Positions 55,101-61,100 of a stretch of 64,000 nucleotides of DNA are shown here, piece by piece. Origin of the DNA: Flaccisagitta enflata. Its lineage: Eukaryota. The notes beneath the pieces were generated by a model. It did no database searches, was not told the DNA's origin, and worked only from the letters and a program-made list of their open reading frames with translations. The position numbers and the translations under genes are program-made. How positions within the stretch are numbered: the first letter of the stretch is position 1; every line of letters starts with the position of its first letter. The stretch covers positions 38,502,001 through 38,566,000 of the forward strand of contig OZ231126.1 in the NCBI GenBank assembly GCA_965153355.1, given 5' to 3'.

Positions 55101-58100
55101 TGTTTTTTTTTCGTTTGTAATATTCTATGACGACGTAATTCTTAAAGTAGTTGAGATAATTGATTTCTGTAAAACGTTTCTGAAAGGTATGGTAGATGCA
55201 TTTTATGTTATTCAATTGCTAGAATTTTGTCACAAAAAATTAATCTCTTGAACATGCTTGGAACTAGATGTTATCATATCCAAATTATTTCTTTGCAAAA
55301 ACTTGTCAATTGGACTATTTACCTTTAAATTACTCTCATTACTAAATGGTTTGAGCTACTGACACCAGATTGGTCTCAGATGAAAGATTTTTTGAAATAG
55401 TTTTTGGGAAAACTTCATTTGAAAGGCTCATGTGATATTTTTGACGATTGTGTGAACAATGAATCAACTCCTGATCAAAATTTTGGTTGAGAAACAGATT
55501 TTCTTAACGCCTAATGTGGCGTACTATTAAAAAAAGTTTTTCTCATTGTATTTCTTAAAATTACTGTAAATTAGCTTTGATTTGAGACCAATCTGGTATC
55601 TATAGCTCAATTCATCCAGAAATAAGATCAACTCAAACAAAAATATTCAGCCAAAAACCTAAAATAATGAGTTTTTTTCCTGTTTTTGATCGATACTTCT
55701 TGCTTGTGTCATGAGGTTCAGATTTTTGTTTAAAAAGTCCTGGAAGTTAAACATCATAAAATGCATCTACCATATCTTTCAGGAACTTTTTACGGAAATC
55801 AATTATCTTTACTACTTTAAGAGTTACATCGTCATAGAATATTACAAACGAGAAAAAAACATACTGTATCGTAAAGATTGGAAGGGGAAAACTATGTCTA
55901 AAAGGAAATTATTTGAGGTGGGTTCGTTTCGCGCGATCATGGACTGATGATGGATGATCAATTTTGTAAGGCAGGCGACAAAGCCTGCGAAATACAGCAC
56001 CACGATGTAAGTACTTTCTTTTTATCGTTATATCAGGTGGACCAGGAACGTTGCAGACACTTTACGAATCAGTGAAACAAGAGACGCCCGTCGTAGTCGT
56101 CAACGGAAGTGGCAGAGCAGCAGACATCGTCGCTTACGCTTACAAAAATGCCAAGGAAGAAACCGTCGAGGTAACATTTCTTTACATCTAGATGTTGATG
56201 GTTACATTGTGCTTTATTAATTTCAAGTGTGTGTGTAGGTTTAGGCATGGGTTGAGTGCATGCATGTTTGTGTGCGTATGTGTGTGTGTGTGTGTGTGTG
56301 TGTGTGTGTGTGTGTGTGTGTGTGTGTGTGTGTGTGTGTGTGTGTGTGTGTGTGTGTGTGTGTGTGTGTATGAGAGAGAGAGAGAGAGAGAGAGAGAGAG
56401 AGAGAGAGAGAGAGAGAGAGAGAGAGAGAGAGAGAGAGAGAGAGAGAGAGAGAGAGAGAGAGAGAGAGAGAGAGAGAGAGACGCCTTTTCACTGTTGTTC
56501 CAGGTTACCGACAGCGATGGCGTGACCTCCAAAGAAATCCAATCCATCATCGACGAAAGACTGGATTTAGAGATTATGGAACGGATCAAAAAGGAATTCG
56601 GCGAGAAGGTGAGATTTACTCATCTCTTTTTTCACTTTTATTTTCCTGGAAATAAATCTATCCATTGATTAGGTTCGACCAGTCTTTTTATTCATTTACC
56701 ATTTTACTTATCATTCTATCTATATATCTTTCTTTTCATCTCTATCTATTTTTCCAACTATCTAAAGTAAAGCGCATCTCGAGGGAACGTTTTTAATTGG
56801 CCGTGATAAAATCCAAGTGCATTCAAATTTCAAAACGAAAACGCGGCAGACGCGCAAGAAATCATTTGTAAACGACTTTCTCGTCAAAAATCTTTTTATC
56901 GCCTCCACCGGGCTTGTGCTTGATGTTGTCATTCGCCCCTAAAAGTAGGAATGCATAAACAACATGGCGTTCAAACTAGATGTACAGTTTATATATTGCC
57001 ACCAAGCGGACGGTCTTGCCTCCGCATTTCTTTTGGGGAAAACTAGACAAAAGACTCACTCAAAGCTCTGCAAATGGTACCTGCCCGAGATTGAACGTTT
57101 GAATAGTCGAGTTTTTCGTCGAAGACTTTCGTCGTTCCACCGCCCGCTTTGTGTTTGATGTTATCATTGGCTCCTGAAACGTGAATAGTAACTTCTTAAA
57201 CCAAATTGCGTACGTCCCAGAGGAAACAGGGCCAAGTGAAGGCCAGTAAGTGCGCCTCGCTTGATTAAGAATTTGTGAATAAACGTTTTTGATGAATGAA
57301 TGAATGAATAAATGAATGACTGAATGAATGAATGAATGAATGAATGAATGAATGAATGAATGAATGAATGAATGAATGAAAATGCATGTGGTAAGGCATG
57401 AAAGGTGATAGGAATGAAGAAATATGTCAGAATGAACCGTTTTGCGCATTTCAAACGTTTGCGTGACCGACCAACCGACCGACCGATCGACGAACATGAC
57501 CTCTTATAGAAGTGCGAGGATACACGTAAAAACGTTGCCCGAGTAATAAATCATTGCATGTCGGTCCTTCACATTTGTCAATTTAGGCATTATTGGCGTC
57601 GCGGCTCCTGCCAAAGTGTATCCTAAATCACCGCCCCTGCCCACCCTCCGTCCCACACGCGACTATCTATCCGGCCTTTTTCTTTCTGATCGACTCGTCA
57701 ATACCGGCTTTTGATTGAACGTTTGAATAATCTTGTTTTTCGTCAAAGACTTTGGTAGTTCCTCCTCCAGCTTTGTGTCCGAGATTGTCATTTGCGCCTA
57801 AAAACGATAAATCAAATAGAAGAACAATGTGCAATGTTTTTTCGTTTTTTGGCAGCGGCCTCGAAGGGGTCAATGACCTATGCTTTCACACATATGGGGG
57901 ATTTTCTCCTTCTCCTCCTCCATCTTCTTCTTCTTCTTCGTCCCCCCCTCAAATCCCAGTCTCGAGGCCTAAATTCCAGTCTCAAGGCCAAAATCCCAGT
58001 CTGGAGGCCCAAATTCCAGCCTTGAGGCCCAGAGCCTAGCTTCAAGGCCCAAATCCTAGCCTGGAGGCCCAAATCCCAGCCTGGAGGCCCAAATCTAAGC

Positions 58101-61100
58101 CATGAGGTCCAAACCCCAGCCAAGAAGCCCAGATTCCAGCGTTGAGGCCCAAATCTCAGCCTCGAGGCTAGGATTTGGGCCTTGAAGCTAGGCTTTGGGC
58201 CTCAAGGCTGGAATTTGGGCCTCCAGACTGGGATTTTGGCCTTGAGACTGGAATTTAGGCCTCGAGACTGGGATTTGAGGGGGGAGGGACGGAGGAGAAG
58301 AAGAAGATGGAGGAGGAGAAGGAGAAAATCCCCCATATGTGTGAAAGCATAGGTCATCGACCCCTACGGGGCCGCTGCCCTGTTCCCCTTCAACTTCAAG
58401 CACAACCTACTCAGCAGGGCACGGGTACCACTGACCATCTAACGCTTTTGCGACTATTCTTTTTTTTTTTCTTTTTTTCTTTTTTTTTCCTTTTTTTCTT
58501 TCTTTTTTTCTTTCTTTTTTTCTTTTTTTTTTCTTTTTCCCTTTCTTAATCTTATCTTTTTAAAAATTGCTACCTAGTTTCTTCTTTTGATAGTTTTCTG
58601 ACAATCGGTAGCGAGATGGTAAAAAATCCGTCAGGTACCTGCTTTGGATTTTGTGTTTGAGTAGTCAAGTTTTTCATTGAAAACTTTGGTGGTTCCTCCT
58701 CCAGCCTTGTGATGGATATTGTCGTTCGCCCCTAAAGACGCGATGGCAATAACAGCTATATGTCAATGTGTGTGTGTGTGTGTGTGTGTGTGTGTGTGTG
58801 TGTGTGTGTGTGTGTGTGTGTGTGTGTGTGTGTGTGTGTGTGTGTGTGTGTGTGTGTGTGTGTGTGTGTGTGTGTGTGTGTGTGTGTGTGTGTGTGTGTG
58901 TGTGTGTGTGTGTGTGTGTGTGTCTGTGTGTCTGTGTGTGTCTGTGCGCGCTTATGATAGACAAAGAAAGAAAGACAAATCAAGTCTTGACTGTAGCATT
59001 GACTGAAACATAAACCTGCTTTGGATTTGACGTTTGAATAATCGAGTTTTTCGCTGAATACTTTGGACTTCCCACCACCGGCTTTGTGTCCAATGTTGTC
59101 GTTAGCACCTCGAGGAAAAAAAACAAATTTTGAGATGGTGCAGAATCCACAAACATGATGACATCACTTGAGTCAGACCATGATTCCTCCCTCTCAGCAA
59201 CCTCGTCCATCAGATTTCTGATTACCCGCTTTGGACTTGACGTTAGAATAATCTTCTTTTTCATCAAAAACTTTCGTCGTTCCACCTCCGGGTTTGTGCT
59301 CTGAAAAAGCCCATAGAAGTTCAACAACTACTAAATTTTTTCAAACTTGAATATTTCAACACTGAATCTCACAATACTTGTGCTGTGATGATCGAAAGAT
59401 TGCCCTGATTCTGAATGCACCGGTGATTGACGAGGACATGAAACAGAGACATTCATAAGAAAAACGACTGCGGACGGTGAAGCAGTCAACCAAAATTCAT
59501 GTCTTTCCACAAAACCATAACTGACGTTGATTGTCTTTCGATCCGACTTTGGGCGCCACTTCTTTGACGATAGTTTTGTTGGCGTTGCTATTTTTGGCGA
59601 CTTTCTCGTGAGTCGACCTCTCCTCATTCGGTTTGTCTTTCCGTATCGTCACTTTGTCTTTTCGCTTTCCGTCGCTTTTTCTCTTCTTCATCGGAACGAC
59701 TTTTTCAACTTTTCGTCTTCGGACGAGGTTTTCTTTGACGCTTCCTTTTAACTCCGCGTTTCGGTTGAAGTTATGATTCGCGTCTTTCGACGATTTTCCT
59801 TCGCTCCCACTCACTCTACGGCTACTCTCACCGTCTCCTTCTTCATCTTCATCCGGCTCTTTCACGTCGCAATCGTAACTTATGCCGGGCTTTTTCTCCC
59901 CGTCTTCCTCCTCATCATCCTCCGCCACGCTCCTCTCCTTCTCCGCGACCACCACATCCTCCACGGATGTCATCACCAATCCTTTCTTCATTCGATCTCC
60001 AAAGACCTCGAGTCGCTGCCGTAGTTCGTCGATGACCCGCTTGGCTCCTCGCACTTGATCCTCCGTCACCTCCAATCTCTGCATCCCGGCTTCCACGCGC
60101 TTCATTTTCTCGGCCAAAATCTTCTCTTCCTCCGTCAGTTCTGTGAAAGACGACGCCGTTTTTTCAGCCGTTGAACCGGCGCCACTGCCACCGCTGTTTC
60201 TACCGGCGTCGGGACGGGGCTCAGTGGCGTTGGATCGGCGTTTGGTTTCGTTTCCTTCTGACGACGAAGCAGTTGAGTCGTCGGCGGCTACTGCTGCTGC
60301 TTCGGCGGCGGCAGACTACGAAGAAAAGATGCACGTATATAAAGCATGAGCAAATAACCTTCCTCCATGGCTCAAACTGCACAACATTTCTAACAAAACG
60401 TTTTGTACGCTAGCGACTTTTTAAGCGGGTGTGTCCTTATACAGGTCAGTCCGTAGGTTGATCAGAAAGTTGTTCAGAAAGTTCTGGAATACGGTCTTTT
60501 TTTATCTTTAGCGCACTGATGCCTCTTCCCAATGCATTCACCTTCAAAGACTCGATTTCGCCTCGGATGAATTGCTTCGTCTCTTCCAGTTCCGTTTTCA
60601 CTTGGCTGACGGCGGATTCCGCGGAAATCAGCGCCACCGAGAGATCGGCGAAGATTTTGCGTAACGCGTCAATGTCACTTCCGGTTCCCATCGAGACCTC
60701 CAAATAGGTCTTCAAGAAGAGCGTCGGATCGGCGATGTCTTTCTGCAGAGAAAACATCGAGTTTTTTTTTACAATTCGATTGTTATAAACCACATCTCTC
60801 GTACCTTAAGACTATTTAAAATAAGATCAATAGCCCCTTTGGATCATATTGAGCTTAATTTTCTTACTATCAATGTCATATTTGTTTATTGACACAATCA
60901 CTCAATTTTTAATGACGAGCACACAACTATATGAGAAGCTTTGTCCTTCTTGCCGTCAGTCTGTCCATCCATCGGTCCGTCCGTCCGTCTGATGTATGGA
61001 TAAGTGCAAAACCGCGCATTTTTTATGCTGCAGTTGTGATTGTGTGTGTGTTTTAGCGGGGTGGACGCAAGCGAGGGGGTTACACGCCCCTGCCCACCCG

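Follow-up and report, generated by a model that had tools for sequence, protein, structure and literature searches.

The 64,000-nucleotide stretch of DNA analyzed here (the window; Flaccisagitta enflata, assembly GCA_965153355.1, contig OZ231126.1, positions 38,502,001 to 38,566,000) carries on its minus strand a real, expressed paralogue of the tau family of microtubule-associated proteins (MAPs). In this paralogue, the KxGS motif of the tubulin-binding repeats has become KxGA in all repeats but the first. The serine of KxGS normally lets a kinase release tau from microtubules. The gene encodes 579 amino acids in 10 coding exons without an internal stop and runs from an ATG at 61818 to a stop at 56862. 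An earlier note on this DNA, which covered the last seven coding exons only and not the part reaching up to the ATG, took it for a kinase-resistant, constitutively bound tau that tolerates proline loss.

The tau-like gene is not the animal's main tau. A separate canonical tau is located at G000:C1:92.598-92.616 Mb of the same genome and shares many repeats, AGGG ends (2/9 repeats) and charged hexapeptides with the window gene. It differs by keeping serine in 9/9 repeats read and by its introns, most of which fall just after the GG motif.

Gene structure and transcripts

Six 31-amino-acid repeats result if the minus-strand exons are joined at GT..AG sites, and their period is exact. Repeat 1 reads KVGS...HKPGGG, repeats 2-5 read KAGA...HKAGGG and repeat 6 reads RAGA...HKPGGG. 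Consequently KxGS, the core motif of the family, is found in one of the six repeats, and the PGGG end, another family feature, in two. The hexapeptide positions hold TKVFDE, SKVFSE, TKVFNE, TKVFDE and TKVFDE, while KKIFDE follows repeat 6. The motifs had been read in this way before, and both the splicing and the RNA joints bear them out; a second change had been overlooked, namely the alanine at the hydrophobic x position of KxG. Compared with human tau, repeats 2-6 retain the equivalents of Ser258, Lys259 and Asn265, while those of residues 260 and 262 are now alanine. The repeat region is basic, with a net charge of the repeats of +10, and 22 Ser/Thr are left in it. Tandem C-terminal tubulin-binding repeats (PF00418), the feature by which tau/MAP2/MAP4 membership is recognized, are present: three of four internal exons score above the 27-bit Pfam cut-off, the fourth at 26.9.

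Exon 4 (59526..60315) ends at the start of repeat 1 (KVGS), and the 75-nt exon B (59226..59300) encodes the end of repeat 1 (PGGG) and the start of repeat 2. Exons C (59016..59108), D (58639..58731), E (57705..57797) and F (57081..57173) are each a KxGA/AGGG repeat unit of 93 nt; both ends are in phase 1 and so fall within the glycine codon of KxG. The last coding exon G (56862..56938) adds the end of repeat 6 (PGGG) and the stop, and its C-terminal ending is the same in two relatives described below, P0181 and P0034. Since each KxGA spans an intron that splits the glycine codon, its reading depends on correct splicing.

RNA contigs of four out of 13 candidate runs were compared with positions 58955-61350, a stretch that ends short of exons D-G. 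In three marine metatranscriptomes from two studies (X1, X2 and X3), contigs match the exons with the introns left out; no reads came from the fourth, X12. An X1 contig of 1561 nt has exons 2, 3, 4, B and C joined just where predicted, after which repeat units follow one another every 93 nt. Because this contig spans exons 2 to C, head and repeats belong to one spliced RNA. The joint of exons 2 and 3 is present in X1, X2 and X3, and the joints 4|B and B|C are present in X2 contigs as well. For exons 3 and 4, the joints in X2 and X3 are shifted by one base, have non-canonical ends and leave one letter in between. The 3' end of exon 1 is matched by loose contig ends of X1 and X2 at 61316. Exons D-G appear in RNA as cross-matching pieces at 93-nt spacing only, single pieces matching exons D and E; the junction letters of E|F are present in X1 and X2, and the F|G joint was not seen among these contigs. 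The idea that KxGA is an artifact of wrong splicing was rejected.

Three side observations concern these exons. At the place where exon D is expected, the X1 contig holds a 52-nt piece identical to exon C (59015-59066), although exon D of the window differs there; either exons have been homogenized in natural populations, or the piece is an oddity of the read-out. The acceptor of exon C reads GAG (59109-59111, G at -3), which is uncommon in spliceosomal introns, and its joint is present in X1 and X2. The intron between exons D and E contains, as judged by eye, a long inverted-repeat element at 57860-58400 that resembles a miniature inverted-repeat transposable element.

Rarity of the motif changes

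A profile of the four 93-nt exons retrieved 418 representatives with E values up to 0.001, of which the 150 best were analyzed. Counting with a matrix that ignores the Ser and Pro positions gave 655 repeats in 149 proteins; because the repeats of the window gene were themselves used to draw this set, look-alikes are favored, and vertebrates, invertebrates and fungi are mixed in it. Position 4 of KxGS is Ser in 639 repeats, Thr in 6, Ala in 3 and another residue in 7, and all three alanines come from P0034 and P0147, close relatives of the window gene. KxGA is therefore as rare as had been supposed. Position 2 is V, I or C in 646 repeats and Ala in 2. The available text of an evolutionary survey gives KxGS as the core motif of 1200 repeats (PMC4815063), and its serine has been called universally conserved in classical MAP repeats (10.1101/267153).

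The other two changes are ordinary. AGGG, which had been held to be unusual and whose frequency in invertebrate taus had been named as a point that would decide against the earlier claim, occurs in 60/655 repeats and 45/149 proteins, as well as in the animal's own canonical tau. Its candidacy as a special feature was thus ruled out, and the loss of PGGG does not set the gene apart. Likewise, at least two charged residues are found in 439/654 hexapeptides, so that a charged hexapeptide is no special neutralization of the amyloid motif and nothing had to be neutralized to tolerate the loss of proline. Because serine loss is rare, while AGGG and charged hexapeptides are common, only KAGA is special. 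It also follows that the gene has little bearing on tauopathy, since changes of the proline and the hexapeptide are ordinary outside vertebrates.

Three further proteins may be mentioned. KxGS is eroded in another way (KIGR, KIGH or KIGP) in P0108, an Opisthorchis viverrini protein according to its source, and in P0111. In P0032, degenerate AGGG repeats are joined to ankyrin repeats.

Orthologue and origin of KxGA

P0181, from a cluster of 4, is a full-length orthologue of 498 amino acids. It matches PF00418 in 5 stretches with 137.5 bits, and its best PDB sequence match is tau (E 1e-38). Its first repeat reads KVGS and the other four of its five repeats KAGA, so that KxGS is present in 1/5; the conservation in relatives that had been asked for is thus found. 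P0034 seems to consist of the final two exons from a further relative. In P0081, Asn would take the alanine position if splicing is alike. In P0147 and in an apparent small tau-like gene of another organism (L016:2372-3644), the KxGA repeat is unbroken and the introns apparently follow the GG motif, as in canonical taus. The L016 gene appears to start just before a KIGS repeat, and its contig ends before the gene does. Its KxGA repeat groups with repeat 2 of P0181 (97/85; tree of 85 rows).

All 11 KxGA repeats form one clade (99/94; 85 rows and 31 columns, few columns for such a tree, with the bootstrap not settled). The clade was kept when the three motif columns were removed (11 of 585 rows, support 0.768). 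Five independent serine losses were therefore rejected; the five KxGA repeats of the window gene do not count as separate cases but go back to one event copied by exon duplication. The alanine codons in the window gene are GCT, GCG, GCA, GCC and GCG. Between any two of exons C-F, 21-26 of the 93 nt differ; 10-14 of these differences are synonymous, and 4-6 residues change. Since KxGA is kept in the orthologue and is written with four different alanine codons, it looks selected. Taken as sequence evidence, these data fit best with one KxGA origin, tandem duplication of 93-nt exons and later retention at the protein level. One ancestral repeat would have changed from K[IVC]GS to KAGA and been multiplied in this way, while repeat 1 kept KVGS. 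First-look searches of the animal's own genome, whose counts are lower bounds, brought up neither another KxGA gene nor a head paralogue.

The head domain and the missing proline-rich region

Upstream of the repeats, the protein is unlike a typical tau. Exon 1 (61671..61818) encodes a poorly conserved N-terminus. Exon 2 (61238..61314) and exon 3 (60542..60742) encode the two halves of a head domain at residues 46-90, followed within exon 3 by a predicted long helix or coiled coil. Exon 4 adds a linker, a second predicted long helix and an acidic, then basic stretch without Ser-Pro or Thr-Pro (SP/TP); the helices assigned to it come from a low-confidence model of P0181 (full-length mean predicted local distance difference test, pLDDT, 50). 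The acidic stretch lies at residues 251-310, alongside the conserved head, which low-confidence models predict to be helical. At the level of sequence, conservation of the head is shown by 41/45 residues identical to P0181, compared with 16/45 before the head and 80/255 in the linker.

A proline-rich region with SP/TP sites before the repeats is a feature of tau/MAP2/MAP4 that this protein lacks. The 100 amino acids before repeat 1 hold 3 Pro and no SP/TP, with homologue medians of 14 Pro and 6 SP/TP (n=107); only 6 of these 107 homologues have no SP/TP there, and only 1 has three Pro or fewer. In the whole protein, SP/TP is absent.

The head region weakly resembles MYCBP/AMY-1, and its assignment to a MYCBP/AMY-1-type dimerization-docking (D/D) domain is a lead only. 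Several comparisons bear on it, and no search reached significance. In the ESM Atlas, the nearest two clusters carry the name c-Myc-binding protein, at 0.76, a level often exceeded by shuffled proteins. When the head was aligned by hhalign with Dpy-30 domains of the animal's own genome, 28 columns were in register (E 0.0016, probability 16), with a two-residue insertion before the DP motif of the head. A profile of 11 D/D domains from the same genome scored 4.9 and 6.5 bits against the head segment, compared with a maximum of 4.2 in 1000 shuffles. The model of the head (mean pLDDT 58) has helices at 3-18, 21-33, 41-52, 59-69 and 76-104. If the model is right, this order of short helices before a long one would match that of MYCBP/AMY-1/FAP174, described in the available texts as an RII/Dpy-30-like D/D domain plus coiled coil (PMC4901443, PMC13345628). 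In contrast, the MYCBP clusters of the Atlas are stand-alone proteins of about 90 amino acids, while the head is joined to tau repeats.

Other searches gave less. With the head model, Foldseek found no match at E 0.001 or better, although a low-confidence monomer model cannot exclude a D/D fold; VIA-align gave a best Z of 5.5, with no D/D protein recognized among the matches listed. Single head exons brought nothing relevant in Pfam and PDB searches. Homologue searches found no match among 82 candidates with exon 3, nor among 4 candidates with P0181 residues 42-145 in shorter proteins. The ESM Atlas clusters for exon 3 alone (0.85-0.86) were unrelated, and where PDB searches matched the head to Spc24 or viral heptad repeats, the similarity was dismissed as general to coiled coils. 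As a side observation, three RIIa-domain matches in the genome occur as equal-scoring pairs 90-200 kb apart (G000:C5, C9 and C2; L034/L035, L038/L039 and L040/L041), which are either local duplications or uncollapsed haplotypes.

Proposed function and alternatives

We propose that the gene encodes a specialized second tau/MAP2/MAP4 member beside the canonical tau, a microtubule tether that would hold on by many weak repeats with one switch left, and we consider this reading about equally likely to be right or wrong. In a cryo-electron microscopy model of human tau on the microtubule, both Ser258 and Ser262 form bonds with Glu434 of alpha-tubulin, Lys259 faces an acidic patch, Ile260 lies buried and Asn265 stabilizes a turn; PGGG is not visible (10.1101/267153). 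Through the retained equivalents of Ser258, Lys259 and Asn265, the six basic repeats would lie along the protofilament. Repeats 2-6 would each bind more weakly than canonical repeats, yet would not be released by MARK/Par-1. Holding power would then come from repeat number, as an avidity of six, and control would be narrowed to the single KVGS, a putative MARK site that corresponds to human Ser262 by position only. With less assurance, one might speculate that head and helices dimerize the protein and dock on a partner, and that its role is a structural one, tethering or cross-linking stable microtubules in cilia, sperm or sensory processes, and not the regulation of axonal dynamics.

In favor of the proposal are the RNA that joins head and repeats, the same layout of the orthologue P0181, the differing alanine codons and exons, the single KxGA clade, the conserved head, the absence of SP/TP, the canonical tau elsewhere in the genome and the behavior of the engineered KXGA human tau cited below. 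Several observations weigh against it. The RNA stems from whole-community marine samples, whose contigs give neither tissue nor level. The L016 gene apparently has a KxGA repeat but no head, so that KxGA would be independent of the head. The head is without Pfam match and without significant PDB sequence match, and in a full-length search the D/D profile scored 0.4 and -1.1 bits compared with 0.6 for unrelated proteins. Planarian tau paralogues that are enriched in the testis and carry KXGS in part of their repeats count for the proposal by their existence, but according to the available text their RNA interference gave no sperm phenotype (PMC6743461).

A related possibility, which we raise tentatively and consider less likely than not, is that the head genuinely belongs to the MYCBP-type D/D domains. 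In that case the protein would be a natural fusion that links an AKAP-like amphipathic helix to microtubules by repeats largely cut off from MARK and proline-directed kinases, that is, a fixed ciliary or sperm scaffold. FAP174 docks on an amphipathic helix in the flagellar central pair (PMC4901443), MYCBP is a C2a component (PMC13345628), and a D/D domain in the head would be expected to dock as a dimer in the same way.

It is unlikely that the repeats were repurposed, with weakened lattice binding, a new target such as free tubulin, actin or acidic membranes, and the main function carried by the head. Three positions of microtubule activity did change jointly in four repeats, two of them also in a fifth, and the very strong conservation of the head would suit such a history. 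However, the three contact residues retained in repeats 2-6, the exact 31-residue period and the positive net charge weigh against it.

Quite unlikely is the tau that the earlier note envisaged, kinase-proof, constitutively and tightly bound, and tolerant of proline loss through a neutralized amyloid motif. Alanine at 5/6 KxGS serines and the absence of SP/TP sites speak for resistance to kinases, and human tau engineered to KXGA continues to block transport, with no rescue by MARK2 (PMC2172520). This part would hold for repeats 2-6, but KVGS is kept in repeat 1 of both full-length proteins and other Ser/Thr are left in the repeat region. In human tau, phosphorylation of Ser262 strongly attenuates binding (10.1101/267153), and that of Ser262/356 lowers it (PMC4811436). 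Tighter binding does not follow either, since Ser262 and Ile260, the residues lost here, are tubulin contacts, and P301S lowers polymerization activity nearly 10-fold (10.1101/2023.12.13.571598). As for the amyloid motif, apart from the frequency of AGGG and charged hexapeptides, P270S does not release aggregation in the context of repeat 1 (10.1101/2023.12.13.571598). Finally, a near-neutral history, in which one tolerated Ser-to-Ala change in a redundant paralogue was spread by exon duplication and homogenization without new function, agrees with the single origin of KxGA and with the eroded KxGS of P0108 and P0111, but is improbable given the four alanine codons, the many synonymous differences between exons and the same motif in L016 and P0147, whose apparently different intron layout implies long retention.

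Comparison with known tau proteins

Like vertebrate tau (MAPT), MAP2 and MAP4, the window gene has tandem 31-residue repeats at the C-terminus, a basic repeat region and the three contact residues in repeats 2-6; it differs from them in the near-complete loss of KxGS (1/6), the alanine at x, the lack of a proline-rich region, the conserved head and the introns within the glycine codon of KxG. Lingula anatina XP_013402001.1 also has many repeats, charged hexapeptides and AGGG (5/11), but keeps serine in 11/11 repeats scored. The engineered KXGA mutant of human tau shares the Ser-to-Ala change; as described in the available text (PMC2172520), all four of its repeats were changed and I or C was kept at x, whereas the natural protein spares repeat 1 and has alanine at x as well. 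Smed-MAPT-L2 and -L3 of planarians are likewise lineage-specific, testis-enriched extra tau paralogues with partial KXGS. The available text mentions no head domain for them (PMC6743461), unlike the window gene; they were compared by description, so their repeat sequences may be similar, and they serve as a loose precedent.

By titles and abstracts, in a search with most subscription journals outside it, KXGA appears for human tau only. Similarly, titles and abstracts (few subscription journals) on invertebrate tau evolution, sperm or axoneme tau and MYCBP gave neither a natural KxGA subfamily nor a MYCBP-tau fusion. With a natural subfamily in which every repeat after the first has long retained KxGA, a switchable and a mostly unswitchable tau can be compared within one genome, and it becomes testable how far the KxGS serine serves binding as opposed to regulation. 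Two features upstream of the repeats, the conserved head and the lack of a proline-rich region, deserve at least as much interest as the motif change; a tau built in this way, with a folded head that has been conserved, would widen the known uses of tau repeats.

Genomic surroundings

The whole tau-like gene lies in antisense within a probable intron (56609..62941, plus strand) of a TRPM channel gene; the splice sites flanking this intron were read. Two upstream exons tested match the Pfam family SLOG-in-TRPM; one downstream exon tested had no Pfam match, and the downstream exons are presumably TRPM, judging from their motifs. Apparently inside the preceding TRPM intron, the plus strand holds a 380-codon open frame (53250-54392) without Pfam match. 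It includes a poly-Gln run, its C-terminal half is charged and coiled-coil-like, and it is possibly a second nested gene.

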